52,676 bases of DNA from an uncultured Candidatus Saccharibacteria bacterium (GCA_964580855.1 CAZOLF010000001.1:1-52676); one strand, 5' to 3'. Shown: positions 19,220 through 45,767, counted from the stretch's first letter. Translations and numbers: made by a program. Notes: generated by a model from the letters alone, not told the origin.

Positions 19220-19281
19220 AGCTCTGGAGATAAAACCTAAAGAATTGTTTTGCATATTTTGTTTTATGTTATTATGTATCT

Positions 19282-19938: not shown

Positions 19939-19953
19939 CTCGTGAGGCACGGC

Positions 19954-20601: not shown

Positions 20602-20605
20602 AAAT

Positions 20606-21394: not shown

Positions 21395-21402
21395 CCTTTA
21401 AG

Positions 21403-21430
21403 TATATAATATGGGGGCTATTTGTGTCAA
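21403..21430 (-). promoter_or_regulatory. Sigma70-like promoter of the trmB operon (minus strand)
   Basis: On the minus strand: TTGACA (21430-21425), 16 nt, TATATA (21408-21403), then 8 nt to the ATG (21394). Confidence 0.5.
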
Positions 21431-21509
21431 TCTTTTTCCACAAAATTCTTTTTTATTAAATTTTACCTTAAAAATAAGCTATTTTATAAGACTATTTTGA
21501 CGCTACAGC

Positions 21510-21537
21510 TTGACAATATATTTTCATTTGCTATAAA
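21510..21537 (+). promoter_or_regulatory. Sigma70-like promoter, leaderless type
   Basis: TTGACA (21510-21515), 16 nt, then TGC-TATAAA (21529-21537). The ATG at 21544 lies 6 nt after the -10. Confidence 0.55.
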
Positions 21538-21543
21538 TACACT

Positions 21544-22170
21544 ATGTTTATACTAATAACAGTTGCATCGCTACTATTCTTTGGAAATAAAACTTTCCTT
21601 CTTTTAGGCAAGCAGATTGGTCAAAAAGTAGGGTGGTTCATGGGCTCTCTCGGCGCGGTGCTTTTTGTAATTTATTTCTTTATTATAGGCACACCAATAC
21701 TTGCTGTAATGGAAATCGGACTAACCCTACTAATGACATATAGATTTATTGCTGGAATTAGAAGCAGTGAGTTGGTGGAAAAAATATTAGGAATAGTTAC
21801 TGGATTAATAATTATATTTCTTACCATTATTGCAAATCAAGGATTAGTAACCTGGGCACAATTTTTTGGGTCGCTTGGAATGCTTGTTGGAACATATTTT
21901 CTGATTGCAAAAAATCAAGCGGAGTCAATAAATTGGAATTCCAGAATTGGCTGGCTGTTATATGGGCTCGGACACTTATTTACTTCGTACATTGGATATC
22001 AAAAACATGAGTGGATATTTTTTGTATTCCAAGTATGGCAGATGCTACTTTGTTTCGGAGGTTTTGCAACAAAAAATTCTAGCAAGAGAAATTTGATTAC
22101 AAAAATCATTTTAATAATTGGGGCAATTGCATCTTTGATTTTTAGTTTTTTTATTAGTACTATTAACTAA
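21544..22170 (+). CDS. Hypothetical polytopic membrane protein (about 6-7 TM; possibly a small transporter)
   Basis: Continuous series of hydrophobic helices. No diagnostic motif recognised. Confidence 0.65.
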   Translation: MFILITVASLLFFGNKTFLLLGKQIGQKVGWFMGSLGAVLFVIYFFIIGTPILAVMEIGLTLLMTYRFIAGIRSSELVEKILGIVTGLIIIFLTIIANQGLVTWAQFFGSLGMLVGTYFLIAKNQAESINWNSRIGWLLYGLGHLFTSYIGYQKHEWIFFVFQVWQMLLCFGGFATKNSSKRNLITKIILIIGAIASLIFSFFISTIN

Positions 22171-22176
22171 CAATAT

Positions 22177-23862
22177 ATGACAAAACAAAATTGTAAAACA
22201 TGCGAAAAAGAATTTGTGATCCGTGATGAGGACATTGTATTCTATGAGCAAATGAAAAGTCCACATCCACTTTATTGCCCAGACTGCCGAATGGCTAAAA
22301 GATTAAATTTCCGTAACGAAAGAACATTCTACAAGAGACCTTGCGATATGTGCAACAAAGATATGATTACAGTATACACTCCAGAATCACCGTTCACAGT
22401 CTATTGTCACGATTGTTGGTGGGGTGATGGCTGGGATCCAAAAGATTATGCTATGGATTATGATTTTTCTAAATCTTTTTTTGAACAATACAAAATTTTA
22501 CAACAAAAAGTCCCAAAGCTAAGTTTGATGGCATTTAATAATGTCCGTAGTGAATACACAAACGGCTCCGCAGAGAACAAAGATTGTTATTTAATCTTTG
22601 CCGCTGACTACAACGAGGATTGTATGTACGGTAGACTCCTACAACGCGATAAATTTTGTGTAGATTGCGCATTTTTACATGAATCAGAACTCTGTTACGA
22701 GTGTACAGATTGTCGTTCATGTTTTAAATGTATGTACTCAGAACAATGCCAGTCATCTACTGATTTACTCTTCTGTTTCAATATGCGTGATTCTTCAAAT
22801 TGTATATTTTGTACAAACGGACGACACATGTCTAATAGTATTTTGAATGTAAAATACGAGAAAGTTGAATTTGAAAAAAAGAAAAAAGAAATACTCGAGA
22901 GTTTTGAAAGTATAGAAAGGGCAAAAAAAGATTTCGAGGAAATAAAACTTCAAGCAATTAGAAAATACACTTCCCAAACGAAGTGCCACAACGTAACGGG
23001 GGATTATCTACACAACTGTCACGAAGGTGTTATGCTTTTTGATACATATGACTCGAAAAATTGTTCATACATGACGGACTCGGAGAACCCAATAGATAGC
23101 ATGGATTGTAACAACTATTACTACAAACCCGAGTTTGGCTACAATATAATGGGCGCGCTAGAAGGGAGTAAGTTAAAGAACTCTGCATTCGTTTTCTATT
23201 GTAATGAAGTTGAATACTGTGAAAGTTGTCATCATTTATCTAATGCATTTGGATGTATTGCGGTACGCAAAGGTAATTACATGATATTTAACAAGCAATA
23301 TACAAAGGAAGAATATTTTGAAATAAAGAAAAAAATCGATGAACAAATAAAAAATGAGGAGGATTATGGGCAATTTTTCCCAGCAGACCTAGCACCTTTT
23401 GGCTACAATGAAACTCTAGCACAGGACTTTTTCCCACTAGAACGCAATGTAGCACTAGAAAGAGGGTATCGTTGGCAAGAAAAGAATACAGGTACATTTG
23501 GCAAAGAAACAATGCCAGAAAATACAATCCCTTCAAGTATTACAAATGTTACAGATGCAATCACTTCAGAAATTCTAGCTTGTAATGAGTGTGGTAAGAA
23601 TTACAAAATCACCCAGGCTGAATTCGAATTCTATAAACGAATGAATTTACCAATTCCGCACAAAGATTTCGAATGCCGACACCAGGCTCGTATGGCCAAA
23701 AGAAATCCTCGCAAATTATATCCTGGAAAATGCATGTGTGAAATTGAAAATCATCTAAATCACAAAGGGATAACATGCGAGGAGAAATTTGAAACAAGTT
23801 ACGGTCCGGAAAGAAAAGAAGTAGTTTATTGCGAGAGTTGCTACAATCAAGAAATTGCATAA
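22177..23862 (+). CDS. Cys-rich multi-zinc-ribbon protein with duplicated terminal modules
   Basis: N-terminus CKTCEKEFVIRDEDIVFYEQMKSPHPLYCPDCRMAKRLNFRNERTFYKRPC. C-terminus CNECGKNYKITQAEFEFYKRMNLPIPHKDFECRHQARMAKRNPRKLYPGKC. The centre holds many CxxC/CxC pairs. Confidence 0.75.
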   Translation: MTKQNCKTCEKEFVIRDEDIVFYEQMKSPHPLYCPDCRMAKRLNFRNERTFYKRPCDMCNKDMITVYTPESPFTVYCHDCWWGDGWDPKDYAMDYDFSKSFFEQYKILQQKVPKLSLMAFNNVRSEYTNGSAENKDCYLIFAADYNEDCMYGRLLQRDKFCVDCAFLHESELCYECTDCRSCFKCMYSEQCQSSTDLLFCFNMRDSSNCIFCTNGRHMSNSILNVKYEKVEFEKKKKEILESFESIERAKKDFEEIKLQAIRKYTSQTKCHNVTGDYLHNCHEGVMLFDTYDSKNCSYMTDSENPIDSMDCNNYYYKPEFGYNIMGALEGSKLKNSAFVFYCNEVEYCESCHHLSNAFGCIAVRKGNYMIFNKQYTKEEYFEIKKKIDEQIKNEEDYGQFFPADLAPFGYNETLAQDFFPLERNVALERGYRWQEKNTGTFGKETMPENTIPSSITNVTDAITSEILACNECGKNYKITQAEFEFYKRMNLPIPHKDFECRHQARMAKRNPRKLYPGKCMCEIENHLNHKGITCEEKFETSYGPERKEVVYCESCYNQEIA

Positions 23863-23865: not shown

Positions 23866-23899
23866 AAAAATCCCCTATGTTTACCATAGGGGATTTTTT
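23866..23899. terminator. Bidirectional intrinsic terminator
   Basis: aaaaatcccctatg (23866-23879) pairs with cataggggattttt (23885-23898). Lies between convergent genes. Confidence 0.8.
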
Positions 23900-24182
23900 A
23901 TACTTTCTTCTTTACTACTTTTTTATTTGTGACTTTCTTTTTCACAGGCTTGTCTGAATGTGGAGCTGTCTCGAGTGTAATTAGTGGAGGATTTAAATTT
24001 AGGTTATTCTTCTTCACAACCTTTTTCTTTACAACTTTCTTTTTAACAGGAGCCTTCTTTGTAGTTGTGACCTTAGTAGGAGTGGCAACAGCTAGAGCAA
24101 CGGAAGGAACAGCCGACAAAGCAAACATTGCTAACACAAAAAAAGAAATAATCTTAACAAAAATTTTTGATTTCAAATTCAT
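23898..24182 (-). CDS. Small secreted Lys/Val-rich protein
   Basis: Signal peptide (IISFFVLAMFALSAVPSVALA) followed by KKAPVKKKVVKKKVVKK ... KPVKKKVTNKKVVKKKV. Starts 6 nt after the stop of the M23 peptidase gene. Confidence 0.55.
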   Translation of the reverse strand: MNLKSKIFVKIISFFVLAMFALSAVPSVALAVATPTKVTTTKKAPVKKKVVKKKVVKKNNLNLNPPLITLETAPHSDKPVKKKVTNKKVVKKKV

Positions 24183-25651: not shown

Positions 25652-25681
25652 TTGACATGACGAACAAAAAGGTTGTAAAAT
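25652..25681 (+). promoter_or_regulatory. Sigma70-like promoter upstream of the Lys/Glu-rich gene block
   Basis: TTGACA (25652-25657), 18 nt, then TG-n-TAAAAT (-10 at 25676-25681). Confidence 0.45.
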
Positions 25682-25746
25682 ATAAGTGTAAAGTCCTACG
25701 GTAGCAAATATCCACTCAATTAAGGTTATATTAAAAATATATTAAA

Positions 25747-25755
25747 TGGTACAAT
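25747..25755 (+). promoter_or_regulatory. Extended -10 element of leaderless type
   Basis: TGG-TACAAT lies 7 nt before the ATG at 25763. Confidence 0.4.
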
Positions 25756-25762
25756 ATAAAAC

Positions 25763-26539
25763 ATGCCAACATCAGAAAAAATAACTCCACAACAAGACAC
25801 TAATCCTCGAAAATCCGAAGGACGAATTTATGAAGATTATACAAACAACAAACTACAGATTGTTGACGATTTTGGGAAAATGCAGGCAAATCTCAAAGCT
25901 TTGATTGAAAAGAAGAGATCAGCAGAACAAGAAGCAAACAAAGCTTTACCTGAAGATAAGGACGAAGAACAAACAGTAGAGGATACCCCAGAAAAATCTG
26001 CCAAAAAAGAAGAAGAAAAGATAGAAGTTACCCCAAAAGAGGAGCCTCCAAAAATGATTACCTTCGCAGACCAGAAAATAGAGGAGGAATCGATCAAAGG
26101 ATTTTCTGAATCTATAAAACCAGAGATTTTAAAAGAAGAAGTCCTAAATAGTATACAAAAAGTTTTACTTGAAAATAATAAAAAAACTAAAGCGTCTCTT
26201 ACTGCATTTACTTTCAGACGAGGCAAGAATACTTATGCCATCGAAGCCGAGATGAAGATTAGTAAGAAACTTCTTCCAGCAATGAGTGTATCAATGGAGG
26301 CAGGAATTTTTAACAAAGGTGGAAATATTGAAATAGAAAATCCTGAACTTAGTGGAGTGATGATAAAAAAAGAAACTCGAAATTTTATTAATGAAATTTT
26401 CCAAAAGATAATACCACAACTCAAACAATCTCTCGAAGAGAAGATTCGAGTCGAACACCCTGGAGCAGAAATCAAATTCATGAATATAATCAATGAAAAA
26501 TTAGAAATCAATTACGAAATAGAAAAAAATTCTAATTAA
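25763..26539 (+). CDS. Hypothetical Lys/Glu-rich protein, no signal peptide
   Basis: 258 aa. The N-terminal half is E/K/P low complexity and the C-terminal ~110 aa look globular. First gene of the block. Confidence 0.7.
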   Translation: MPTSEKITPQQDTNPRKSEGRIYEDYTNNKLQIVDDFGKMQANLKALIEKKRSAEQEANKALPEDKDEEQTVEDTPEKSAKKEEEKIEVTPKEEPPKMITFADQKIEEESIKGFSESIKPEILKEEVLNSIQKVLLENNKKTKASLTAFTFRRGKNTYAIEAEMKISKKLLPAMSVSMEAGIFNKGGNIEIENPELSGVMIKKETRNFINEIFQKIIPQLKQSLEEKIRVEHPGAEIKFMNIINEKLEINYEIEKNSN

Positions 26540-26544
26540 ACAAA

Positions 26545-29160
26545 ATGCAAACCCCAGAAAACAATTCAAACCCTGAGGGGAAAAGGCTCTCGCCTAAAAC
26601 TGAAGAAATAAAAAACTATTTCCAAAATGAAATTCTTTCTCCATTGGAAAAATTAATTGCGGAGAGAAAATTAAAAGAACAAGCACTTGAACTTGCAAAA
26701 AAAGAAAAGAAAAGTGTCCCAAAAAAAAGGAAGGAAGTCATAGAACCTGAAATCAAACCAGAGGAGGTGATAGAGCCTACTATCAGTGAAGAATCCGAAA
26801 CAGCTCCAATCGTAGAAAATCCGAAAGACGAAATAAATACATCTACAAAATTAGATACCGCCAATTTGCCCCCTGCAACTCAAGACTTGGTAGAACTTCT
26901 TGGGGAAGAAAATGTTCAAGCCTCAATGGATTTTGTTGCACCTCTTTTAGTAGAAAAGGAAGAGGCTTTGAAAAAAGCGGAAGGTGAAAAAGAGAAAGCA
27001 CTGACTGCATTAGAGGAAGTTCACGAAAAGAAACCATACAAAAAAAAGAAATATAACGAACTCAAACAAGAAATAGAAGATAAATATGAAGATGCTGTAT
27101 CTGACATAGAAGCAGAATATAGAAAGAAATTCAAAGACTTAACAAATCCAAAAAAAACCAAAACTCCAGAAATTACAGTAGATGAAATTACAAAGGACTG
27201 GGAAGACTGGAAAAATAATCCAGATAATTTTACAACAACTAAAGGTGGCAAAGAAACTATCTCTGAAATAGAAGAGCTTGGATTTACCGCAAAATTTAAA
27301 ATGCTTGAAAATGGCAAGCCCACGTTTGAAAATACACCTAATAGCCAAGCAATGTTTGCTTATAACCCAGATACCATGCAAGTACTCCCAAGAAAAGAAG
27401 GCTGGAATTATGCTACAGACGGATCTGGACATTATTTTGAACATTACTATGGGCAACTTTTTAATATCCCAGAATTCAAAGTCGGTGATAAATTTGAAGA
27501 TTTCGAATTCACTCCTGCAACATTACACAAAGATGGCAGTATTGTAAAAGGAGATATGAAAAGGAAAATAAATGAAAAATTAAAAGAAGACGCAACAGAG
27601 ACTACTACAGTAGAAACAGAAAATGAGTCCCTCGAAAATAAAATAGCTGATATAGAAAGAAGAAGGAAAGAAGCATTATTAAGTATTAGACAGGCTATTG
27701 ATGGCACAGATAGAACAGAGTTTTGGACGGCCGTTATTGGAAAGGGAGTAGAGGGTGTACTGAGTGGAAAAACTAAAAAAGAGGTTGCAGAGAAAATTAA
27801 TGCTAAATACTACAAAGAATTAGAAGATTTAACGGGGAACAAAACAATCTCCAATATGATTAAGAGGGAAGAGGAAAATGACCGAATTGAAAACGAAGAA
27901 AAAGAAGAGCTGAAGCAATTGGAAGAATTAATCCAGGAAGGGGCAACTGCTAAAAAAAACACAAAGGCATATAAGGCATTTAAAAATCCAGAACTTTATA
28001 GAAAACAAATCAAAGATAAATTTGACGCACAGAGGAAAGTAGCTCTAGAATTGTATTCGCCTGTCGCATATGAATTCGAAGAAAATAAAAAAGGTCAGCT
28101 AAGGAATCTTTATACTATTATGAAAAAAGCTGAAGATGAAAGAGACCAAGAATTGGCGCAAATTGATCAAGACGAGAAAGAGTTACTCGATGCCGAAGTA
28201 AAACGTGCAGGATTAAATAACATAGATACTTATGAAAAATTTAACAAATTCCTAGAGAACAACTTAAAAAATCCAAGCTCAGTCACAGCGCTTGATTGGA
28301 TTAAAGAAGCGTTTGATATAAAAAGAAAAGAAATAGAGGATAAATCCCCAACACAGACAGATAATGCAATGTTTGATTTTATAAGAGAAGAAGAAAGTAA
28401 GAAAAAACCAAAAGTAGAAAAAACCAAAAAGGACGTGGCGGGTAAAAAAAATGAGTTGAAAAATAATATTATACAGCCAGCCAACAAAGATTTTTCTGTC
28501 ACAATCCAAAAAGACCCTACCAAAGAAAAAGGAGTTTCCCCGATTATGACAGTCGAAAAAATTATAGAGAACTACCAAAAAAACCTAGAGGAACTAGAGG
28601 AGCGAGAGCTCGCAGAAAGGGAAAAGTTAGGATTACCAAAGCAGATTTACCCAGTTGATAAAAAGTGGGTCAAGTCGCTTAATACTCTGAAGCAACGTTA
28701 TGTTGAGGAAAGAGGGAAAATAGGCGAAGCGTATCGTAAAGAGCTTGGCAAATTAACAAGGAAGAATGAAGTAGGGAGCCAGAATAACGCAACAGGCTTT
28801 GTCCCACTGACCGAAGAACAACTATCGACAATGACTCCGAAGGAAATTTATGAATATGGATATAAATACAAGCAATACGGTGTAAATAGCCCTGAAGTAA
28901 CAAACGCAATTATCAGGGAACTCGATAACAAAAAAGGAGGGGTAAACAAAAAAGTAGAAAATAAAAATAGAAAAACTTCTTCCAAAATAGAAGGAGGGAA
29001 AGTAAGTCCTCGAATAAAAGCATTGGTAAAATTAGACATATCAGAATTAATGGAAATTGAAAAATTGCCTAAAAATGCACCCAACAGGAAATCTCTAGAA
29101 AAGGAAATCGCCGAAAAATATGCGACATTAAGAGACGAGGTAAACACAAATGTATTCTAA
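26545..29160 (+). CDS. Hypothetical 871-aa Lys/Glu-rich coiled-coil protein, no signal peptide
   Basis: Uninterrupted 2.6-kb ORF in AT-rich DNA. N-terminus NPEGKRLSPKTEEIKNYFQNEILSPLEKLIAERKLKE is paralogous to the N-terminus of ORF 29190. Confidence 0.8.
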   Translation: MQTPENNSNPEGKRLSPKTEEIKNYFQNEILSPLEKLIAERKLKEQALELAKKEKKSVPKKRKEVIEPEIKPEEVIEPTISEESETAPIVENPKDEINTSTKLDTANLPPATQDLVELLGEENVQASMDFVAPLLVEKEEALKKAEGEKEKALTALEEVHEKKPYKKKKYNELKQEIEDKYEDAVSDIEAEYRKKFKDLTNPKKTKTPEITVDEITKDWEDWKNNPDNFTTTKGGKETISEIEELGFTAKFKMLENGKPTFENTPNSQAMFAYNPDTMQVLPRKEGWNYATDGSGHYFEHYYGQLFNIPEFKVGDKFEDFEFTPATLHKDGSIVKGDMKRKINEKLKEDATETTTVETENESLENKIADIERRRKEALLSIRQAIDGTDRTEFWTAVIGKGVEGVLSGKTKKEVAEKINAKYYKELEDLTGNKTISNMIKREEENDRIENEEKEELKQLEELIQEGATAKKNTKAYKAFKNPELYRKQIKDKFDAQRKVALELYSPVAYEFEENKKGQLRNLYTIMKKAEDERDQELAQIDQDEKELLDAEVKRAGLNNIDTYEKFNKFLENNLKNPSSVTALDWIKEAFDIKRKEIEDKSPTQTDNAMFDFIREEESKKKPKVEKTKKDVAGKKNELKNNIIQPANKDFSVTIQKDPTKEKGVSPIMTVEKIIENYQKNLEELEERELAEREKLGLPKQIYPVDKKWVKSLNTLKQRYVEERGKIGEAYRKELGKLTRKNEVGSQNNATGFVPLTEEQLSTMTPKEIYEYGYKYKQYGVNSPEVTNAIIRELDNKKGGVNKKVENKNRKTSSKIEGGKVSPRIKALVKLDISELMEIEKLPKNAPNRKSLEKEIAEKYATLRDEVNTNVF

Positions 29161-29189
29161 AAATTAAAGCAGTTGAAAAATAAATTATA

Positions 29190-29771
29190 ATGAAGAAAGA
29201 AAAGCCCCAAAAACCAAACCCAGAACTAAATTCTTTAAATGAAAAGAAAGAGGAAATAACTGCACATTTTTATAATACATATATTGGCCCTTTGCAATGG
29301 ATGATTGAGCAAAAGAAGAAACAGGAAACCAAAGCTCATATAGAAGAGGTAAACAAAATAAAAGAAGAAATTGAGCAAGCTCGAGATAATGAGTTGCGAA
29401 GTGATCCTCTGAATTCCGAATTTGCCGACAAGCCAAAAACTAATGAATCTGACAAGGTACATAAAACAAAAGCTGATATCTACTTTGCCAACCCCATAAA
29501 ACACCTAGAGGGGATACTAGCCCAAGCCAACAAACAACTAAGTAAAGAAAAATCTCGCACCATGGCCGAAGAAGTTATCAAAAAATATTCCCCAATACTA
29601 CAAAGAGTTAGAGAGATAAATTTAAAATATGACAATATGTATGTAGAAGCAGTGGAAAGCCAGAAACTTACAGCAAAAGAAGCAGCCGCAATATTGACTG
29701 AACTCGAAAGGATAGGACCAGAAATAAGAAAGTCGATAAAAGAAGTGGAGAAGAAAAATTTGCAAAAATAA
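29190..29771 (+). CDS. Hypothetical Lys/Glu-rich protein, no signal peptide
   Basis: N-terminus NPELNSLNEKKEEITAHFYNTYIGPLQWMIEQKKKQE aligns without gaps to the N-terminus of ORF 26545. Confidence 0.7.
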   Translation: MKKEKPQKPNPELNSLNEKKEEITAHFYNTYIGPLQWMIEQKKKQETKAHIEEVNKIKEEIEQARDNELRSDPLNSEFADKPKTNESDKVHKTKADIYFANPIKHLEGILAQANKQLSKEKSRTMAEEVIKKYSPILQRVREINLKYDNMYVEAVESQKLTAKEAAAILTELERIGPEIRKSIKEVEKKNLQK

Positions 29772-29821
29772 GTCAACACCCCAGATCGTGCTTTAAGGCA
29801 CTATCTGGGGTGTTGACTTTC
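29772..29821 (+). terminator. Intrinsic terminator splitting the Lys/Glu-rich block into two transcription units
   Basis: Perfect 15-bp stem: gtcaacaccccagat (29772-29786) pairs with atctggggtgttgac (29803-29817), followed by ttt. Confidence 0.75.
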
Positions 29822-29841
29822 ATTTACAAGTGTTAGATAAT
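29813..29841 (+). promoter_or_regulatory. Sigma70-like promoter overlapping the terminator's 3' arm
   Basis: TTGACT (29813-29818), 17 nt, then GATAAT (29836-29841), within TGTTAGATAAT (compare TGTTAGAAT at 18743 and 35174). Confidence 0.45.
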
Positions 29842-29908
29842 ATAAAGCGTTCATAATAATCACTAAAAGATTACACTAAATTAATATATAATATTGGTAC
29901 ATAATAAT

Positions 29909-31153
29909 ATGGCAAAAGAACAACAACCTAAAAGGAAGTGGTCCCCAGAGGAGATAAAGCAAATCATCAATGATGGTGGTGTGTTTAAAGGCAAAGAATT
30001 GAGTTCAGCTGAACTTGAAGAAGCCTTGAACTTGTCTAAAGTTTACGAGGCAGAAGCCCTCGCAGAAGCAGAAGAAAAATTCATAGAAGATACAAAAGAA
30101 AATGAGCAGGAAGAAAACAAAGCTCCAAAAGAATCAAAGAGACAAAAGAAAATCCGCGAACTAGAAGAAAAACTTGCCAATTTAACCCCAGAACTTACTG
30201 CTCTCAAACTCGAACAACAAGCTGACCTAGAAAAGATAGAGGAACTCAAAAGAAAAATCCAAGAGCAAAAGGCGAGTGGTGCACCACTTACTCCGGCAAC
30301 TCCAGAACCGAACCCCGTAGCAAAAACAGGCAACAAAGCAGAGGAAACATATGGATATGAAGATACAAGAACTCCCCGAGAAATATATTTAGATCAATCC
30401 TCAAAAAGAGCGGAGCAGAGCTTTGGCAAAAACTGGGAAGGTATCAAACAAGTGGACAACCACTACGAAGCATTTTATTATCCAGAAAAGGAACTCAGTG
30501 GAAGAAGCATTGAGCCTATTTTAATACATGGATCAACCACGGAGGAAGTATATTATAAATTAAAAGATAGATACGATGCAGAGTGGAGATTGCTTGCCGG
30601 CCAAGGACCAAAAATACTAGAAGACTTGAAAAAAATAGGGAAAGAAAGATCAGAAAAAATCGCAAAGTCTAATGCGCGCGTTATGCCAATACGATGGATT
30701 CTAGGCCAAGCTAAAAAAGCAAAAGAGAAGACTAACCAACAAATTAATAAAGAGCAAGATATTAAAGTAAATGAGGCTGAGTACCCATTTATGTATTTTG
30801 CGTATGACAAAATAAATCCAAAACTTCAAATCTACCCCCGCGACTTTACAAACAAAAATGGGGAAGATCCCGAATACATGTCTGGTATGATTTTTTCCAC
30901 AGCATACACGGATGCTCCAATCAATAAAAAAGTGGTAGAGGCAAATGATATTGTAGAATTTAACCCGCTAGGATTCTTTGTAGTAAGAGATAAAAGATCA
31001 AAAGAAGGTGAGCAATATGGCGTTGTTGGACCAGATGGAACTCTCCTTACAAATAAAATGGACCTCGAAAGTGCCAAAGCTTTCCTTAAAGACGAAGTAC
31101 TCGAGTATCGGAATAAATTAAAAGAAGAGTTTTTGCAAAAACAAGTTGATTAA
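29909..31153 (+). CDS. Hypothetical Lys/Glu-rich protein with a C-terminal globular domain, no signal peptide
   Basis: ORF 29894..31153 (TTG start) trimmed to ATG 29909 (MAKEQQPKRKWSPEEIKQII...). Confidence 0.75.
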   Translation: MAKEQQPKRKWSPEEIKQIINDGGVFKGKELSSAELEEALNLSKVYEAEALAEAEEKFIEDTKENEQEENKAPKESKRQKKIRELEEKLANLTPELTALKLEQQADLEKIEELKRKIQEQKASGAPLTPATPEPNPVAKTGNKAEETYGYEDTRTPREIYLDQSSKRAEQSFGKNWEGIKQVDNHYEAFYYPEKELSGRSIEPILIHGSTTEEVYYKLKDRYDAEWRLLAGQGPKILEDLKKIGKERSEKIAKSNARVMPIRWILGQAKKAKEKTNQQINKEQDIKVNEAEYPFMYFAYDKINPKLQIYPRDFTNKNGEDPEYMSGMIFSTAYTDAPINKKVVEANDIVEFNPLGFFVVRDKRSKEGEQYGVVGPDGTLLTNKMDLESAKAFLKDEVLEYRNKLKEEFLQKQVD

Positions 31154-31184
31154 ATTAATCCTTATTAATTAATATATAAACTAT

Positions 31185-34100
31185 ATGGCAGAAAAAACAC
31201 CAAAATCAAAAGAAGAAATCGAGCTTGAAAATTTGCAAAAAATAGTTGCAGACAGGGCAAAGACTATCGGCAAGAAAGAAACAGATGTCCACAAAACAAC
31301 TATTGAACTCAACAAACTAAAGAGAGAAGAGAAGAAGGAAAATCCTCCAGAAAAGATTGCCGAGGAAGCTCTGGAAGCACTCAAGAATGAAATGATAAAT
31401 GCCCGAAATGAATACGGCACAAAGAAAGTAAACTACGATAAAACAGTGAGCGGAATAAAGAGTGCAATGCACAAACTTGGAAGCTTTTTGGGTCTGCCTA
31501 AAAATCAAAATTATGATATCGTGCACAAGGCCGAGCAAGTGTATTACGACAAAGCTCGAACATATCTTGATGCATTTACAGACAATCTCCAAGCCGAACA
31601 TTTGGAAAAAACATTTGGAAGCGATGAAGACAAAGCAAAATCTCGCGCAGAAGTAGACCAGAAGGTTGCACAAGAGGAAGCCCTTTATAAGAAACTTCGC
31701 TTTGATAAAAAGGATGACATGTTCCAAGAATCAACAGAACAAAGAGCAGATGCGATGGATGCGAAAGATATAGCAGAAGGAAAAGAACCTAAGAAAGGAA
31801 ACTTCTTGAAAAATTTGTGGGCAGGATTGCGGAGTGGAGCCAAAAAAGGAATTACTGAAGGTATGGATGGTGAAGCCCCTGTAGATGGTGAAAATGAAGA
31901 AGAAAAAGGTAAAAAGAAAAAGAAAGGCAAGGAGGAATTGCCTCCTGTACGCATACCAGAAGCCGAGCTTGAAACCCTCCGTGGTGAGATAGATGCTCTT
32001 CGTGCAGACTACAATGTTAAGCAATTTACTTACGATCAAAAAAATAATTTAATAACTAGGTTTACTGGTAGACTTTTTAATGCATTGGGGGTAAACACAG
32101 ATTACAAAGAAGTAGATGAAGCAAAAGAAGCCTACTTCGAAAAAGCAAAAGAATATGTGGAGAAGTTTACTTCTGACAAAAAAGCTCAGCATTTGGAACA
32201 AACATTTGAAACCGAAGATGCACAAATCACATCTCGAATGCTGACAGAAGATGCAATAGAGGCAGAAGTAGCAAAATTCAAGAAGTTGAAATTCGAAAAA
32301 GCATCGGAAGAATACCAGAAGATGCTTGATGAACGTCATGCGAACCTCGAGAAGAAGGATGCAGAAGCTGGCACTCCAGGCAAAAGACCAGGTGTACTCC
32401 TAAAAGCACTCGGGGTAGTTGGCAGAACATTAGGAACAGGAATGGATTTCTATAAAGCGATGGGAGACTGGGGATTCAATATATATACAATGCGAGACAA
32501 GTCCAACTTGCCAAGCAAAGAAGAAATAGATGCTTTACTAGCAGATGCAAAAACTAATAAGGATGAAGCAAAAAGACTAAAAGGCGAGGCTAGAAATGCA
32601 ACAGGTGCAGACAAAGAGAATCTAGAAAGAGACGCTGAAGTTTTGGAAAAAACAGCAAAGACTCTCGAAGAACAAGCCAAGGGTAAGATAGTTTTCCAAT
32701 ATAAATTTGGACAACTCGTTCGAAACCTTGGTTTTGGAGCACTAACAGGAGTAGGATTCGTAAGTGTAGCATCTGTGGGGACTCGAATAATTCGTGGTGT
32801 TGCAATACAGATGATTTCATCAAAAGTGATCAATAATCTTGAAAAGAAAAATGCTGTTCAAATGATTGCTTTTGAAGAACAAAGAGCCGAAATCGAACAG
32901 AAGTTTGCTCAAGATCAAAATGAGGAAGAGCACAATCATGCACTCCGACTTTTGGATGAAGCTATTAGTAAGGTGAAGTCCCGACATGGCTACAAACGAT
33001 TTGCAGTCCTAGGATTATCAATGCTTGCCAACTATGGTTCTGCAAAACTAGGAGGTGATGCCTTGCTTGAAAAGGGTATTGATTATACAAAGTCTGGTAT
33101 TCTTGGCATGTTTAGTGGAGATACAGGTGAGGCAACTCCAACAGAAACAACCACAACAGAAACAGAAGAAACTAAAACACCAGAAAAGACAAACAAACCT
33201 GTAGGTCCTAGACTAAAAGATACTGCTCAAGCAGTAGACCCAGACACAGGTAAACTTATTCCAAATCCAGTTACTATCCAAGACAGCACAGCAACAGATT
33301 CTTTGAACTCTGGAATTGGAGGGCAAGACACAACTTCAACTGATACTATTAAATCTGGAATCGGAGCACAAGATAGTACATTAAATGATACTCTAAAAAA
33401 TCCTATTGCTGGACAAGATACAACAGTACAAGACACATTAAAAAATATTAAAAATGGTATTGGCTCTAAAGATACTATTGGTTATGATACAACACAAGTT
33501 ATCAAGCCAATCATAAATCAAGATACAACTGGATATGATACGACACAGGTAATCAAGCCGATAATGAACGGCCAAGACACCACTGGATACGACACAACAA
33601 AGATAATTAAACCGATTATATCTCAAGATACTACTGGCTATGATACAACTCAAGTGGCAAAACCAATTATCTCTGGGCAAGATTCAACATCTGTTGATCC
33701 TACAAACACTGGAGGCACTAAATTGGAACAAGATGCTGGTAGTAACCCAGACAATGCAACAGAAGATCTTCCTCCACACAAAGCTATCGAACCAATCAAA
33801 GTCAGTAGTGAAGGAGCAGGAGCTATGATTCAAGATTTGAAACAAGCATTGGAGAAAGAGTACCCAGATCCAGCAACACGCCCAGAAAATATTGATCATA
33901 TAATCAAAACTCCACTTTGGACTTTGGCACAAGAATGGGGAATGTTTAACCCTGAAAATGCAAAAGAAAGTATGTTTGTATTAGAAGGTTCAACTATAAG
34001 TGTTGATGAAAACGGAGTGGTAAGTATCCACGACATCGGCAAGGGCGATGATACAATCATTTCTGGAGAAAATAATGTGAAGTGGCATGAAGGAAGAATG

Positions 34101-34784
34101 TTTGATTCCGATCACAGTGGAGCTCGAGCATCTGAATCTGGAGCCGGAGTTAAGGGTACAGAATCTACCGAGAGCGGTTCTGGAAGTGGAGATCCTCTAG
34201 ATTACACTCCTCCTGATGAAAGTGAATTTTATCAAGATGGCGCTGAAAATAATACAGAAGGCGAAAGTGCACCACTGGAAGAGACCCAGAAACCTAGCAC
34301 ATCTACATGGGAAGATCTAAACAAACAAGAATCAAATGTTGATAATTTCCACCAAGGAAGTAACTTCTATACAGAAGGCTCAACTAACACAAGCCCTGAT
34401 ATCGACCGACCACTAAAAACAATCAACCCAGCTGACGTCCCAGGAACTCCAGAATATACAGCAAGCCACCCACCCGTACCACAAGGAGACCCATTTGAAA
34501 ATACACCACAATTCAAGCAAGAGAACTTGAAGTTAATCAACGAAATCTTCAGTGACAGAACAAATGGAATTTCAGATGAGAATGGTCTATTTACTGAAAG
34601 CTGGAGGAAATTGAAGGATTTGAAGATTATTGATGTGGTAGATAGAGGTAGTCAATATCCTATCTATGTACAAGATGAAATCGATAAAATCGTAAAGTTA
34701 AATTATGAAACTGGTGTGCCGTACGGAGGAAAAACAGTTGAAGAATATTTGGCAAGTGTGGCCAAGAATAAGCTTGGAAAATAA
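31185..34784 (+). CDS. Hypothetical 1199-aa protein: duplicated coiled-coil module, two central hydrophobic segments, Thr/Asp/Gln-rich tandem repeats, C-terminal globular region
   Basis: Uninterrupted 3.6-kb ORF. Hydrophobic segments at about 32725-32815 (LGFGALTGVGFVSVASVG) and about 32998-33055 (FAVLGLSMLANYGSAKLGG). Confidence 0.85.
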   Translation: MAEKTPKSKEEIELENLQKIVADRAKTIGKKETDVHKTTIELNKLKREEKKENPPEKIAEEALEALKNEMINARNEYGTKKVNYDKTVSGIKSAMHKLGSFLGLPKNQNYDIVHKAEQVYYDKARTYLDAFTDNLQAEHLEKTFGSDEDKAKSRAEVDQKVAQEEALYKKLRFDKKDDMFQESTEQRADAMDAKDIAEGKEPKKGNFLKNLWAGLRSGAKKGITEGMDGEAPVDGENEEEKGKKKKKGKEELPPVRIPEAELETLRGEIDALRADYNVKQFTYDQKNNLITRFTGRLFNALGVNTDYKEVDEAKEAYFEKAKEYVEKFTSDKKAQHLEQTFETEDAQITSRMLTEDAIEAEVAKFKKLKFEKASEEYQKMLDERHANLEKKDAEAGTPGKRPGVLLKALGVVGRTLGTGMDFYKAMGDWGFNIYTMRDKSNLPSKEEIDALLADAKTNKDEAKRLKGEARNATGADKENLERDAEVLEKTAKTLEEQAKGKIVFQYKFGQLVRNLGFGALTGVGFVSVASVGTRIIRGVAIQMISSKVINNLEKKNAVQMIAFEEQRAEIEQKFAQDQNEEEHNHALRLLDEAISKVKSRHGYKRFAVLGLSMLANYGSAKLGGDALLEKGIDYTKSGILGMFSGDTGEATPTETTTTETEETKTPEKTNKPVGPRLKDTAQAVDPDTGKLIPNPVTIQDSTATDSLNSGIGGQDTTSTDTIKSGIGAQDSTLNDTLKNPIAGQDTTVQDTLKNIKNGIGSKDTIGYDTTQVIKPIINQDTTGYDTTQVIKPIMNGQDTTGYDTTKIIKPIISQDTTGYDTTQVAKPIISGQDSTSVDPTNTGGTKLEQDAGSNPDNATEDLPPHKAIEPIKVSSEGAGAMIQDLKQALEKEYPDPATRPENIDHIIKTPLWTLAQEWGMFNPENAKESMFVLEGSTISVDENGVVSIHDIGKGDDTIISGENNVKWHEGRMFDSDHSGARASESGAGVKGTESTESGSGSGDPLDYTPPDESEFYQDGAENNTEGESAPLEETQKPSTSTWEDLNKQESNVDNFHQGSNFYTEGSTNTSPDIDRPLKTINPADVPGTPEYTASHPPVPQGDPFENTPQFKQENLKLINEIFSDRTNGISDENGLFTESWRKLKDLKIIDVVDRGSQYPIYVQDEIDKIVKLNYETGVPYGGKTVEEYLASVAKNKLGK
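31362..32390 (+). repeat. Intragenic duplication of a module of about 140-170 aa
   Basis: ...AEHLEKTFGSDEDKAKSRAEVDQKVAQEEALYKKLRFDKK... aligns with ...AQHLEQTFETEDAQITSRMLTEDAIEAEVAKFKKLKFEKA.... The preceding ALEALKNEMINARNEY aligns with ELETLRGEIDALRADY. Confidence 0.6.
33480..33689 (+). repeat. Four in-frame tandem repeats of 51-54 nt
   Basis: GYDTTQVIKPIINQDTT, GYDTTQVIKPIMNGQDTT, GYDTTKIIKPIISQDTT, GYDTTQVAKPIISGQDST. Degenerate QDTT/QDST copies extend upstream from about 33290. Confidence 0.85.
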
Positions 34785-34815
34785 ATTATTAATAATTATT
34801 AAAAAATAAAAATAT

Positions 34816-35124
34816 ATGCAATTCGATAAACAAACATATGATATCTTGGCCAAAGCTTTAGGGATAGCAGATCTTCCTGAAGCAGACCGTATGGAACTCT
34901 TGGAAAGAGCAGGGGTCCTAATTTACCAAGCTGTTATAACTCGTGCGATGGAGGAGATGACAGATGAACAAGTTGATGAATTCGAAAAATTCGTTGACAC
35001 AGGAGAGCCAACCCCAGAGACAATGCTAATGTTCTTCCGTTCAAAAATCCAAAGTTTCGATATGATGATAGATGATGAAGCTCGAAAGTACATAGAGTTT
35101 ACTCAAAAGATGATGGCCGAATAG
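34816..35124 (+). CDS. Small acidic helical protein (resembles the DUF5663-type proteins common in CPR genomes)
   Basis: 102 aa, rich in Glu/Asp/Met: DILAKALGIADLPEADRMELLERAGVLIYQAVITRAMEEMTDEQVDEFEKFV. The family assignment is from memory only. Confidence 0.6.
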   Translation: MQFDKQTYDILAKALGIADLPEADRMELLERAGVLIYQAVITRAMEEMTDEQVDEFEKFVDTGEPTPETMLMFFRSKIQSFDMMIDDEARKYIEFTQKMMAE

Positions 35125-35138
35125 CCAAACAAGCCAAC

Positions 35139-35175
35139 AAAACCCCTCACATCTCAATATGTGAGGGGTTTTGTG
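35139..35175 (+). terminator. Intrinsic terminator ending the Lys/Glu-rich block
   Basis: aaaacccctcacat (35139-35152) pairs with atgtgaggggtttt (35159-35172). Confidence 0.8.
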
Positions 35176-35188: not shown

Positions 35189-37111
35189 ATGCAAGAAACA
35201 TATCTGAAAGATTTAAACGAAAAACAACAAGAAGCTGTCTTGTATACAGACGGCCCACTTTTGATCGTGGCGGGAGCAGGGGCAGGGAAAACAAAAACTC
35301 TAACCTATAGAATTCTTCATTTGATCCGGACTGGAGTTGACCCACGAGAAATTCTGGCGGTTACCTTTACCAACAAAGCCTCGAAAGAAATGCGTGATCG
35401 CGTTGTCTCTTTATTGTCAGATAGGAAATACGATGCGACTCCCTTCGTCAGTACCTTTCATGCTCTCGGAGTATATATAATTCGTGAAAATTCACACCTT
35501 CTAGGATTGAACAAAAATTTCACAATTGCCGATGATAGCGATACAACAGGCTATATAAAAGAGGCTTTGAAAGAGCTTGATCTCGACCCGAAACAATTTG
35601 AACCAAGAAAAATCAAAAGTGTAATTTCCAAATCAAAAGGCGACTTCATAAGCCATGAACAGTTTGTGGAAAATATTCGTGGAGGTTTCCAAGAAGTTGT
35701 CGCAAAGGTTTGGGACAAATACGACGCAAGTTTGAAAAAAGAAGGCGCGCTTGATTTCGATGATTTGCTCATAAAATCAGTAAAAGTTTTAAAAGAAAAT
35801 TTAGAAGTCCGCAACAATTATCACAAAAGATTTAAATATGTGATGATCGATGAATATCAAGATACAAACGAGGTACAATACGAACTCGTAAAGTTGCTCG
35901 TCGGTGAAAATAAAAATATTTGTGTTGTTGGTGACACCGACCAAAATATTTATTCTTGGCGCGGAGCAAACATAAAGAATATGCTACATTTCGAAAAGGA
36001 TTATCCGAGTGCAAAGATTATCATGCTCGAGCAAAACTACCGATCAACCAAAACAATCCTAGAAGCAGCGAATGAAGTTATCAAAAAGAATGTTTATCGT
36101 GTGCCCAAAAATCTTTTTACAGAAAAAGAAATTGGTGAGTCGATAACACTCTTCGAAGCCTTCGACGAAGGAAGTGAGGCCCAGTTCGTGGCTAAAACAG
36201 TCTATGATTTATTAGAGCGTGGAGTGGCCGAACCAACAGAAATTGCAGTACTTTACCGTGCCAACTTCCAATCGCGAATCTTGGAAGAAGCATTTTTAGG
36301 ACGACAAATCCCATATCAAGTCTTGGGGGTAAAATTTTTTGAACGAAAGGAAATCAAAGATGTGCTGGCTTATATTCGTGCAAGTTTGAACCCTGAAAAC
36401 CTTTCCGATATTAAAAGAATCATCAATGTGCCAGTACGAGGAATCGGCAAGGTAACGATTGCGAAAATTTTTGCCAACCAAACTAATTCTTTGCCTGCAA
36501 ATACTCAAATTAAAGTTAACAACTTTTACTTACTACTAGAAGAAATCAGTGAATGTATCCAGAACAATTCTGTATCAGAATCATTAAAATTTGTAATTAA
36601 GAAAAGTGGCCTTGAAGATGAATTGAAGGCGGGGAGTGCGGAAGAAATAGAAAAATTGGAAAATATAAAAGAACTCGTAACACTGTCACTCAAATACGAC
36701 ACTTTTGGCCCTGAAGGTATGAATATGTTGCTCTCGGATGCCTCTTTAGCAAGTGACCAAGATAGTCTGATGCATGAAGAGAAGAAGGGCGGAGTAAGGC
36801 TGATGACCGTTCATGCCTCAAAAGGCCTTGAGTTTAAATATGTTTTTATCACTGGACTTGAGCAGGACCTTTTCCCACATTCACGCACAAATTCCAAAGA
36901 TGCTGGGGAGAGCGAAGAGGAACGCCGATTATTTTACGTGGCACTTACTCGTGCCGAGCACAAGCTATATCTTTGCTATGCATCTTTACGAACAATTTTC
37001 GGAATGAAGCAAGTAAATACGCCGAGTGAATTCCTCAATGACATTCCGGCGCATCTTACAAGCTTCGAACAAGGCGAATCACACAATGGGGAAAAATTTG
37101 TTTATTTTTAA
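35189..37111 (+). CDS. pcrA: ATP-dependent DNA helicase, UvrD/PcrA family (short, 640 aa)
   Basis: SF1 motifs: AGAGAGKTKTL (I), DEYQDTN (II), QNYRST (IV), TVHASKGLEF (V), YVALTRA (VI). TGT-TAGAAT (35174-35182) lies 6 nt before the ATG. Confidence 0.9.
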   Translation: MQETYLKDLNEKQQEAVLYTDGPLLIVAGAGAGKTKTLTYRILHLIRTGVDPREILAVTFTNKASKEMRDRVVSLLSDRKYDATPFVSTFHALGVYIIRENSHLLGLNKNFTIADDSDTTGYIKEALKELDLDPKQFEPRKIKSVISKSKGDFISHEQFVENIRGGFQEVVAKVWDKYDASLKKEGALDFDDLLIKSVKVLKENLEVRNNYHKRFKYVMIDEYQDTNEVQYELVKLLVGENKNICVVGDTDQNIYSWRGANIKNMLHFEKDYPSAKIIMLEQNYRSTKTILEAANEVIKKNVYRVPKNLFTEKEIGESITLFEAFDEGSEAQFVAKTVYDLLERGVAEPTEIAVLYRANFQSRILEEAFLGRQIPYQVLGVKFFERKEIKDVLAYIRASLNPENLSDIKRIINVPVRGIGKVTIAKIFANQTNSLPANTQIKVNNFYLLLEEISECIQNNSVSESLKFVIKKSGLEDELKAGSAEEIEKLENIKELVTLSLKYDTFGPEGMNMLLSDASLASDQDSLMHEEKKGGVRLMTVHASKGLEFKYVFITGLEQDLFPHSRTNSKDAGESEEERRLFYVALTRAEHKLYLCYASLRTIFGMKQVNTPSEFLNDIPAHLTSFEQGESHNGEKFVYF

Positions 37112-37123: not shown

Positions 37124-37912
37124 ATGATACACAAAGCCAAAAAATCCATGGGTCAAAATTTTCTCAAATCTAAGTCCGCGCTCGACGCAATGTGCAAGTC
37201 GAGTGACCTTGTGGAAAGTGATGTCGTGTTGGAGATCGGCCCAGGTAAGGGCGCGTTGACTGAATATTTATTACGGGCAGTTAATAAAGTAATCGCCGTG
37301 GAAAAAGATTATAACTTATTTGAAATTCTTTCGGAAAAATTCAAAGATGAAATTGCAAGTGGGCGCCTGATAATGATACAAGGGGATATCTTGGAATTTG
37401 ATCCGCAACAAGCAGGTTTAGGAAAATCCGGATATAAAATCATCGCTAACATTCCATACAATATAACAGGTGCAATTATAAAAAAATTTCTAACAATTGC
37501 AAATCACCCGGAGAGTATGACACTACTCGTACAGAAAGAAGTTGCCGAGAGGATTGTGGCTCGTGATGGCAAAGAGAGTATTCTGTCTATAAGTGTCAAA
37601 GCCTTCGGCACACCAAAATACATAATGAAGGTAGGGAAAAAGTTTTTTAGCCCCGCTCCCAAAGTTGATTCCGCAATTATAACAATTAAAAATGTTTCCA
37701 AAGACACTTTTAAGAAAGTTGGTGAGGAAGAAAAATTCTTTCAGATACTAAAAGCCGGATTCGCACACAAAAGAAAAGTGCTGATTAAAAATTTAGAGGA
37801 TGCTCTGCCGAAAAATAAAATTGCCGAATTTTTTGAAAAAGAAAAATTAAATCCTAAAGCAAGAGCTGAAGATATAAAGCTCGGAACTTGGCTCGAACTT
37901 TTAAATTTTTAG
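37124..37912 (+). CDS. rsmA: 16S rRNA (adenine1518/1519-N6)-dimethyltransferase
   Basis: GQNFL, the SAM motif LEIGPGKGALTEYL and NIPYNITG are typical of KsgA/RsmA. Confidence 0.9.
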   Translation: MIHKAKKSMGQNFLKSKSALDAMCKSSDLVESDVVLEIGPGKGALTEYLLRAVNKVIAVEKDYNLFEILSEKFKDEIASGRLIMIQGDILEFDPQQAGLGKSGYKIIANIPYNITGAIIKKFLTIANHPESMTLLVQKEVAERIVARDGKESILSISVKAFGTPKYIMKVGKKFFSPAPKVDSAIITIKNVSKDTFKKVGEEEKFFQILKAGFAHKRKVLIKNLEDALPKNKIAEFFEKEKLNPKARAEDIKLGTWLELLNF

Positions 37913-38395: not shown

Positions 38396-39304
38396 ATGAG
38401 CATACAAGCGTATCTACCTAGCAAATCATTTGGACTAAAAATTTTAATACTTTTAGTTGTTGTTCTTGTTGCTGGGTCACTTTATATATTCAAGCCCTTT
38501 AGTAAAGAAAATGCTCCATCCAAACTTGCCATAAAAATTAATGCGAATCCAGAAATGACCCTAGGGGATTTAATCACAACAGATAGTAACAAAAATTCTA
38601 TCCCAGATTGGGAAGAAACACTGTGGGGACTTGATCCGGAAGGTGATGGAGTAAGCAACAAAGCTATAATTGATTCCAAAAAGGCTTTGAGCGCCCCAGT
38701 TGACGAAGAAATCACAGATGGGACAGACCCAAGTGATAACTTAGCTAAAAAGCTCTTCGGAACAATCGTTTCCTTGAATCAAGTAGGGGAATTAGATAGC
38801 CAGACAATGGCATTAATATCTGCTGATGCAAGTGCTGAAGTGATAAACACAGACTTGGAAGATACATACAAGGCGGGGAACCTAAAGACAATAATCTCCA
38901 ACAAGACTAACTTGAGGAATTATCAAACTGCTGTAGGAAAAATAGTCGATAAATACGAGAATAGTAGTATTGGGGAAGAGTTAGCCATAGCTGGAGAAGG
39001 TGTTGAAAACGAAGACACGGAGACCCTGAACAAACTGGAGACGATATCACTGGATTACAAAAATTTAGCCTTAGATTTATCGCACGTAACAGTCCCAAGG
39101 GGGATTGCAGGATACCATCTAGATCTTATAAATTCTTATGACAAAATAGGGACAGCTCTTGAGCATATTATAGAATCAGTTGAAAATCCACTAGTAGGCC
39201 TAAGCGGGACCGGAATGTATAATAGATATGTACTAGAATCTGAAGAAGCTATCAATATGATAGAGGAAAATCTTATCGCAAATGGTATAATACAACAGGA
39301 ATAA
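38396..39304 (+). CDS. Hypothetical membrane-anchored protein with a degenerate Asp-rich (thrombospondin-type-3-like) motif
   Basis: N-terminal anchor LKILILLVVVLVAGSLYIF. TTDSNKNSIPDWEETLWGLDPEGDGVSN resembles D-x-D-G-x-x-DWEE Ca-binding repeats. TGG-TATAAT (38379-38387) lies 8 nt before the ATG. Confidence 0.7.
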   Translation: MSIQAYLPSKSFGLKILILLVVVLVAGSLYIFKPFSKENAPSKLAIKINANPEMTLGDLITTDSNKNSIPDWEETLWGLDPEGDGVSNKAIIDSKKALSAPVDEEITDGTDPSDNLAKKLFGTIVSLNQVGELDSQTMALISADASAEVINTDLEDTYKAGNLKTIISNKTNLRNYQTAVGKIVDKYENSSIGEELAIAGEGVENEDTETLNKLETISLDYKNLALDLSHVTVPRGIAGYHLDLINSYDKIGTALEHIIESVENPLVGLSGTGMYNRYVLESEEAINMIEENLIANGIIQQE

Positions 39305-39305
39305 A

Positions 39306-41717: not shown

Positions 41718-41725
41718 ATAATTTT

Positions 41726-45658: not shown

Positions 45659-45660
45659 TA

Positions 45661-45759: not shown

Positions 45760-45767
45760 ACAAAGGC

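Follow-up and report, generated by a model that had tools for sequence, protein, structure and literature searches.

A hypervariable island at a conserved position

The DNA analysed here (the window) is the whole 52,676-nt stretch deposited as CAZOLF010000001.1:1-52676 (GCA_964580855.1), and our subject is a block of six genes on its plus strand at positions 25763-35124. Read as open reading frames (ORFs), the first three specify Lys/Glu-rich orphan proteins of 258 (25763-26539), 871 (26545-29160) and 193 (29190-29771) amino acids (aa), and are followed by genes for a 414-aa protein (29909-31153, with its ATG at 29909), a giant 1199-aa protein (31185-34784) and an acidic, helical 102-aa protein (34816-35124). 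The same ORFs had been listed in a first-pass annotation, and all six lie on the plus strand where it had put them. Judging from the relatives of its UvrD, the closest of which among species representatives is 84% identical, the window comes from a Paceibacteria/Nomurabacteria-type member of the Patescibacteria, a large and mostly uncultivated bacterial branch that lives attached to other microbes and in which roughly half of all genes lack a functional assignment. Such genomes often contain blocks of hypothetical proteins. The present block leads from an anonymous set of ORFs to a widespread family of giant, predicted membrane proteins with two conserved domains that lack a similar solved structure or Pfam family, and it offers further handles in a near-constant DUF5663 partner, a recurrent N-terminal peptide and a fixed address beside a type IV secretion system (T4SS).

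In 80 related genomes (80 loci) the 10 kb on the upstream side of uvrD show one constant order: a divergent gene for a LysM-M23 peptidase, zero to four plus-strand genes for Lys/Glu-rich proteins (mostly without detectable relatives), the giant gene, the gene for the small protein, and then uvrD, rsmA and a T4SS-like region. Most of these loci encode a protein of 700-1600 aa near the end of the island, and a ~100-aa protein stands next to it in 34 of them. Three independent contigs from other sources also run from the M23 gene (minus strand) through the giant gene and, optionally, a DUF5663 gene to UvrD and RsmA, and the minimal form of the island is M23 (minus strand), giant protein, UvrD and RsmA. 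Housekeeping genes (PNPase, DksA/TraR-type and ComM-like) lie upstream of the peptidase gene. As had been noted before, uvrD (35189-37111) and rsmA (37124-37912) are what separates the block from the T4SS-like region, which holds a PrgI/TcpE-like gene and a gene for a VirB4/TraG-type ATPase.

Identity to the closest relative is 90% for the ComM-like protein, 84% for UvrD and 70% for RsmA; it is 51% for the M23 peptidase, 36% for the DUF5663 protein and 28% for the giant protein, the last over 28% of its length, and the 258-, 871-, 193- and 414-aa proteins gave no match. The block is a hypervariable chromosomal island at a conserved position, with the giant protein and the DUF5663 protein as its core. 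Such extreme divergence relative to neighbouring genes is what would be expected of host- or phage-facing proteins and, if they are of this kind, the island could determine host range.

Outside that core, the 258-, 871- and 193-aa proteins are species-specific additions to the island. Searches of the phmmer/jackhmmer type recovered no relatives of the three in the 80 related loci, and pattern scans of metagenome contigs from the Joint Genome Institute (JGI) gave none for the 871- and 414-aa proteins. A word-indexed search, a method weakened by charged low-complexity words and by the database-size correction, returned for the 871-aa protein only the protein itself, which is a singleton in a collection of 15 billion proteins. 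In clustering at 90% identity all six block proteins were singletons except the 193-aa protein, which has a single strain variant (96% identical, from a European Nucleotide Archive (ENA) sample). The two versions of this gene differ by 11 synonymous and 7 non-synonymous changes, a ratio of non-synonymous to synonymous polymorphism (pN/pS) of 0.155, and from this ratio we conclude that the 193-aa gene is real and under purifying selection.

Spurious or decaying ORFs, held open by an A/G-rich low-complexity composition and drifting without function, might also give such a picture, since no relatives turned up for three of the six proteins in any of the searches and low-entropy windows hold 42-62% of the residues in the five large proteins. 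That explanation is hardly credible in the face of 871- and 1199-codon ORFs that stay open in a genome of 34-39% G+C, the pN/pS just given, tight gene spacing, promoter-like sites, conserved terminators and three families conserved across many genomes. The block ORFs are real genes.

The 414-aa protein represents an accessory family of the island. It starts with PKRKWSPEEIK at its N-terminus, continues through a charged middle part and ends in a conserved C-terminal domain of ~145 aa (30710-31141, plus strand), which profile searches recovered in seven related loci, usually in the gene immediately 5' of the giant gene. This domain had no match in the PDB or Pfam, and a TraB match of the whole protein scored 15.7 bits against a cut-off of 504. 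Where a 414-type relative is absent, the position immediately 5' of the giant gene can be taken by a second accessory family, f16, seen in eight related loci (L001 5190-6980, L025 5553-6800, L037 5580-7028 and five more); one locus, L004, has both. Homology between f16 and the 414-aa protein was considered and rejected on comparison.

The six genes are probably organised in two transcription units. The first is preceded by a promoter-like site (TTGACA-18-TAAAAT, 25652-25681, plus strand; 11 of 12 matches) and ends in an intrinsic-terminator-like hairpin with a U-rich tail (29770-29826, plus strand), after which a promoter-like site for the second unit follows (TTGACT-17-GATAAT, 29813-29841, plus strand); both promoter sites were identified by consensus match only. 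The terminator hairpin itself (29770-29819; -37.9 kcal/mol, z -10.2) is followed by UUUCAUUU and splits genes 1-3 from genes 4-6. It bears out the earlier proposal that a terminator divides the block, and it is kept in the strain variant L081 (622-665, corresponding to 29772-29819 in the window; -35.6 versus -37.9 kcal/mol); the two versions are distinguished by an indel in the loop and by the repair of a C-T mismatch, with the stem retained in both. A further hairpin of 16 bp (35137-35174, plus strand; -26.3 kcal/mol) lies between the end of the block and uvrD. The 30 nt 5' of all six starts (25733-25762, 26515-26544, 29160-29189, 29879-29908, 31155-31184 and 34786-34815, plus strand) are almost pure A/T and lack a Shine-Dalgarno-like purine motif, and five of the six proteins begin with Met followed by A-rich codons. 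The AT skew of the region is 0.36-0.38 and stems from purine-rich codons.

The giant protein and its DUF5663 neighbour

By its conserved domain, hydrophobic segments, charged N-terminal half and tail, the 1199-aa protein is a member of an unnamed and unannotated family, whose carriers are almost always 700-1700 aa long and appear to be membrane proteins of Patescibacteria. It opens with the motif MAEKTPKSKEEIE (31185-31244, plus strand), which motif statistics identify as an instance of the family signature PPK...EE[I/L]. Self-alignment then reveals an internal tandem duplication (first copy aa 56-215, 31350-31829; second copy aa 256-415, 31950-32429, both plus strand) with a score of 218 against a shuffle mean of 39 (z 27), which the first-pass annotation had not noticed. 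We searched for this repeat as a module common to other proteins and rejected the idea. The internal hydrophobic segments had likewise been missed. The first, of membrane type by hydropathy, covers aa 515-548 (32727-32828, plus strand), and we read a second, weaker segment at aa ~618-640 (33036-33104, plus strand), after KVKSRHGYKR. Next come Thr/Asp-rich tandem repeats (33279-33655, plus strand; a 45-nt unit repeated 2.3 times and a 51-nt unit repeated 3.6 times) that may form an external stalk.

Beyond the repeats lies a 117-aa alpha+beta domain (aa 866-982, 33780-34130, plus strand) recognised by profile and by AlphaFold2 modelling, which predicts three helices and a beta-meander at a mean predicted local distance difference test (pLDDT) score of 79.5. 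The domain, with the pattern G-A-I...L-K...Y...A-P...E-S...G-N...Y-x-G-K-M-F-D-S-D, serves as signature of the family, and the 1199-aa protein matches the profile with an E-value of 1e-41. The domain was found in 20 ORFs (19 from related loci and that of the window), and an exhaustive HMMER search of 1.84 billion representatives clustered at 50% identity found it in at least 159 clusters at E-values up to 1e-3. By comparison, word-indexed searches returned one fragment for the C-terminal 360 residues of the 1199-aa protein, and nothing at the required E-value for the domain profile. A predicted acidic, disordered linker joins the domain to a conserved helical C-terminal tail (aa ~1100-1199, 34482-34781, plus strand; predicted structure with pLDDT 70-87).

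Neither the 117-aa domain nor the tail has a match in Pfam, among PDB sequences, among PDB folds (Foldseek) or among viral folds. A likeness of the domain to the designed 'Pizza' propeller was rejected, as it was a sum of weak PDB profile matches; given single-blade i-E-values above 190, we take it to be a resemblance of beta-hairpin motifs and not homology, and Foldseek agrees. Beyond DUF5663 no family or fold can be assigned to the block, which in itself does not imply a new mechanism.

The topology of the giant protein can be approached through its family. Hydrophobic segments precede the domain in 125 of 129 relatives (one or two segments, ~71 residues apart), and the 129 average 3.99 Lys+Arg in the 15 residues before the last segment versus 1.83 after it. 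Composition changes across the membrane segments as well: the N-terminal region of the relatives is 29% Lys+Glu, and the part past the segments is acidic with 17-18% Lys+Glu and 43-46% Ser/Thr/Asn/Pro/Gly/Gln/Asp. Modules of cytoplasmic type (DnaJ, FtsK-gamma, SAP and TPR) occur sporadically and in the N-terminal part only; on three contigs (L082 1483-4767, L083 1073-3922 and L084 1471-6684) the N-terminal region of the giant relatives includes a winged helix of FtsK-gamma type, a DnaJ J-domain or a weak SAP motif. From hydropathy, charge, composition and module placement across the family, we infer that the N-terminus lies inside and the C-terminus outside, that is, with the N-terminal half cytoplasmic and the C-terminal part external. 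The first hydrophobic region would then be a hairpin or an interfacial helix.

Since FtsK-gamma, DnaJ and SAP modules are carried by relatives, the cytoplasmic half appears to accept DNA-binding and chaperone-recruiting modules. One could accordingly picture the giant protein as tethering DNA to the membrane in concert with the UvrD/PcrA-type helicase and the T4SS; its charged region, and its soluble relatives, would bind or organise DNA there, be it for handling of the chromosome or for transfer or uptake. A winged helix of FtsK-gamma type is present at aa ~85-148 of at least four relatives and SAP in the N-terminal region of two to three, the giant or DUF5663 gene is immediately 5' of uvrD in most loci, and the proteins are Lys-rich. 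Against this, few of the ~150 relatives have such modules and the giant protein of the window has none, the net charge of the window proteins is negative (-50 for the 1199-aa and -13 for the 871-aa protein), a strong hairpin stands between the block and uvrD, and synteny with a housekeeping helicase may be only historical. We therefore regard a DNA tether as quite improbable.

The same predicted topology recalls bitopic division or morphogenesis scaffolds of monoderms such as MapZ/LocZ, EzrA and RodZ, and a gene for a cell-wall hydrolase lies next door. The architecture predicted for the giant protein, in which a large helical or disordered N-terminal part in the cytoplasm is followed by a membrane anchor and by two external domains with a disordered or flexible linker between them, resembles the one described for MapZ. 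The giant protein could on this comparison be a bitopic landmark for division or the cell wall, tied to the LysM-M23 peptidase, with a scaffold in the cytoplasm and a wall-binding part outside, and would position or regulate the hydrolase or the division machinery. The constancy of the divergent LysM-M23 gene as upstream neighbour would suit such a role, as would the J domain of one relative and the FtsK-gamma modules of others. The likeness is one of architecture alone, however: the giant protein has no sequence or fold similarity to MapZ, EzrA, RodZ or any other division protein, is much larger, contains tandem repeats and usually has a second hydrophobic segment. Landmark proteins are, moreover, usually well conserved, whereas the giant family diverges very fast and its island is missing from the position in some genomes. 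A division landmark is on balance distinctly unlikely.

The gene that closes the block agrees with its earlier description as that of a small acidic helical protein (102 aa, net charge -12). Against DUF5663 (PF18908) the protein scores 15.5 bits (E 0.027), below the gathering cut-off of 23.7. Using phmmer, ~100-aa proteins in 33 related loci were recovered at E-values of 1e-31 to 1e-4 over residues ~10-100, and 30 of 33 aligned family members (the window protein and relatives from 32 loci) match PF18908, with a best E-value of 1.5e-09. These ~100-aa proteins are acidic and helical like that of the window, which aligns with them over its full length, and on this homology to accepted members we assign it as a divergent DUF5663 protein despite its score. 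The DUF5663 gene almost always adjoins the giant gene, in either order, a pairing that fits a candidate role of the protein as partner or chaperone of the giant protein. We found no mention of DUF5663 in the literature searched.

Four loci have the DUF5663-like gene 5' of the giant gene (L006 5941-9717; L038 4324-8435, minus strand; L058 3864-8934; L086 140-4100). The giant Lys/Glu-rich proteins of these four are 1146-1576 aa long, and the small gene of L086 encodes 104 aa without a Pfam match.

Composition and N-terminal similarity of the block proteins

The five large proteins had been described as dominated by Lys, Glu, Pro and Thr, with a predominance of predicted coiled coil, and as lacking signal peptides. 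Lys+Glu content is indeed 27-31% in the 258-, 871-, 193- and 414-aa proteins and 20% in the 1199-aa protein (19% in the 102-aa protein), but Pro+Thr amounts to just 9-13% and is not dominant. The lack of signal peptides agrees with our finding that, in the first 35 residues of the five proteins, the maximum 10-residue Kyte-Doolittle mean is 0.39. Coiled coil is another matter. A crude heptad/charge test, which is no dedicated predictor, covers just 0-16% of residues, so that coiled coil is not established, and charged single helices or disorder are a possible and equally good alternative.

It had also been proposed that the five proteins form a paralogous family with related N-termini. When the first 60 residues of each were compared by pairwise local alignment with 1000 shuffles per pair, the 871/193 pair stood out with a Smith-Waterman score of 75 (shuffle mean 31.8 +/- 5.9; z 7.35) that was reached by none of the 1000 shuffles, and it alone was significant in BLASTP with composition correction (E 0.003). 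The gapless alignment reported for this pair is thus real and slightly better than the ~13 identities claimed, with 15 identities over 37 residues. It joins aa 9-45 of the 871-aa protein (26569-26679, plus strand; containing TEEIK) to aa 10-46 of the 193-aa protein (29217-29327, plus strand; containing KEEIT), and by this similarity we take the two N-terminal modules (~45 residues) to be paralogous. As a candidate for a general family module it was rejected, its profile matching nothing else in the window or in the 80 related loci. The remaining nine pairs are no better than shuffles (z <1.6), and jackhmmer started from each protein recruits none of the others. Relationship therefore stands for one pair only, and these comparisons do not bear out the five as a paralogous family; the 1199-, 414- and 102-aa proteins fall into three separate families, each conserved in relatives. 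A weak FAY..P..Q..PR similarity that had been thought to link the 871- and 414-aa proteins proved to be chance: tested on the 871-aa protein, the profile of the 414-aa C-terminal domain family gives a score of -1.8, which 295 of 500 shuffled sequences also attain.

What the N-termini do share is shorter. Of the K-x-x-EEI motif that had been reported for the 414- and 1199-aa proteins and, weakly, for the 258-aa protein, EEI is present within the first 25 residues of four of the five proteins and is missing there from the 258-aa protein. Any tripeptide is shared by at least four of five composition-matched shuffles with P=0.0016, and the N-terminal EEI is the sole EEI of the 871-aa protein and of the 414-aa protein. 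Codons for the motif differ between the genes, and it is therefore not a DNA repeat.

Among 129 full-length giant-protein relatives from other genomes, PP[K/x] occurs within the first 14 residues of 14.7%, compared with 0.9% of internal windows and 0.45% of background proteins, and EE[I/L] within the first 25 residues of 20%, compared with 4.5% and 0.9%, respectively; in the island proteins of related loci each stands at ~10.6%. The enrichments have Fisher p values of 2e-6 to 1e-16. When the 38 window ORFs are scored with a profile built only from foreign PPK-type N-termini, the 414-, 1199- and 871-aa proteins lead in this order (p ~0.001) and the 193-aa protein comes sixth, whereas the 258-aa protein is not picked out; per protein, the empirical p values are 0.007-0.09. 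What remains of the idea of a shared N-terminal signal is thus a short linear motif (P-x-K...EEI) of four of the five proteins and of giant-protein relatives that does not extend to the 258-aa protein, and the statistics suggest that this motif has its home in the giant-protein family.

A motif of this kind at the N-termini of soluble, fast-evolving proteins near T4SS genes invites comparison with effector-chaperone pairs of such systems, the role that the first-pass annotation had put foremost. The soluble Lys/Glu-rich proteins would be substrates or effectors exported to the host, the motif their signal and the small acidic helical DUF5663 protein, a conserved neighbour, their chaperone. The island lies 3-15 kb from PrgI/VirB4-type genes, a neighbourhood conserved in most of the 80 loci; the absence of signal peptides agrees with such a role, and proteins that interact with a host typically show extreme divergence and gene turnover. 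The T4SS of Patescibacteria has also been reported as essential for epibiotic growth, with substrates that are unknown (PMC12857230).

Several observations run counter to this. The signal in the block is N-terminal and best conserved on the giant protein, whose membrane segments make translocation unlikely, whereas known T4SS signals are C-terminal. Between the block and the T4SS genes stand uvrD, rsmA and strong hairpins, and we identified no coupling protein in the window. No block protein has an above-threshold match to a T4SS component or effector family in Pfam/NCBIfam, nor did the block resemble any known chaperone. A published survey of Patescibacteria T4SS/virB4 neighbourhoods mentions KsgA (RsmA) and neither UvrD nor DUF5663, and does not describe this island. 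Taken together, export of the soluble proteins as effectors is unlikely.

Models of the island's role, and its flanking regions

Returning to the giant and DUF5663 proteins as the core of the island, we propose that the giant protein is a membrane-anchored scaffold with docking partners, in an island that further consists of the DUF5663 protein and accessories, and we put the probability of this reading at roughly one in three (0.35). The charged, helical N-terminal half of the giant protein (~500 residues) would lie in the cytoplasm, and the Thr/Asp-rich repeat stalk, the alpha+beta domain and the helical tail would lie outside the cell, making the protein an envelope-spanning scaffold or tether. 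More speculatively, the soluble Lys/Glu-rich proteins and the giant protein may all present the N-terminal P-x-K...EEI peptide for docking to one common cytoplasmic partner, for which the acidic DUF5663 protein, as adaptor or chaperone, is a candidate. The identities to closest relatives, together with the module of the 871/193 pair and the repeat inside the 1199-aa protein, suggest that the island grew by duplication followed by very fast divergence; equally speculative is the idea that new subunits arose from duplicated 5' gene parts that then diverged rapidly.

A number of points weigh against the scaffold. The second hydrophobic segment is weak and falls below the hydropathy thresholds applied, and the topology derives from hydropathy and charge statistics. 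Two simple membrane spans would leave the C-terminal part in the cytoplasm. There is little canonical coiled coil by the crude heptad test. The motif is short, occurs in 15-20% of the family and in ~10% of the island proteins of relatives, and is lacking in the 258-aa protein; its M-x-K-E part may be only the product of A-rich codons after the start. The three families have no functional annotation, and interaction among the block proteins is purely proposed. Finally, a few genomes have no island at the position, their M23 gene lying directly beside uvrD, from which it follows that the island is dispensable or located elsewhere there.

Although speculative, it is tempting to go further and see in the giant, DUF5663 and motif-bearing proteins a Patescibacteria-specific, envelope-spanning apparatus that joins a charged scaffold in the cytoplasm to a fast-diversifying surface domain, is genetically linked to the T4SS and serves host attachment or communication, and in which PPK...EE[I/L] would be a new kind of signal for assembly or targeting. 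We consider this extension of the scaffold model rather improbable.

Two more distant likenesses deserve mention. The cytoskeletal proteins of the Mycoplasma attachment organelle (HMW1/2/3, P65, P200 and P30) are large and charged, helical or of low complexity, and lack signal peptides, and the block shares with the organelle, by analogy, a cluster of charged proteins and a membrane protein with presumed external repeats in a small-genome, host-attached bacterium. However, no homology was detected, the block lacks acidic proline-rich or EAGR-type domains, and a polar structure is not indicated. Phage tape-measure proteins are similarly long, helical and charged with internal hydrophobic segments, and an M23 gene lies near the giant gene too, but a phage-derived reading was rejected. 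The five proteins had no match in PHROGs, Foldseek against BFVD gave none below E 0.3, and the block is part of a conserved chromosomal backbone whose housekeeping flanks are syntenic in many genomes. We also rejected anti-phage defence, for which PADLOC matched just CARF3, weakly and on the Thr/Asp-rich repeat region, no part of which passed by itself, and Rfam and tRNA searches gave no matches that would explain the block.

Outside the block, the T4SS-like region (38396-52598) is syntenic in most related loci, with Pfam matches only to the PrgI/TcpE-like protein and the VirB4/TraG-type ATPase. Its large proteins (803, 1310 and 928 aa) diverge fast, being 35-42% identical to the closest relative, and the 1310-aa protein aligns over just 10% of its length. 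On the other side, genes at 18758-23862 encode a HAD hydrolase, a ceramidase-like membrane protein, a TrmB-type regulator and proteins of 208 and 561 aa; as they are absent between the ComM-like and M23 genes of the two closest relatives, they appear to form a second variable segment. Just downstream of the M23 gene, a 94-aa ORF on the minus strand (23898-24182) has an N-terminal hydrophobic segment and KKKVVKKK-type repeats, and ~100-aa Lys-rich ORFs occupy the same position in loci L001, L005, L014 and L017.

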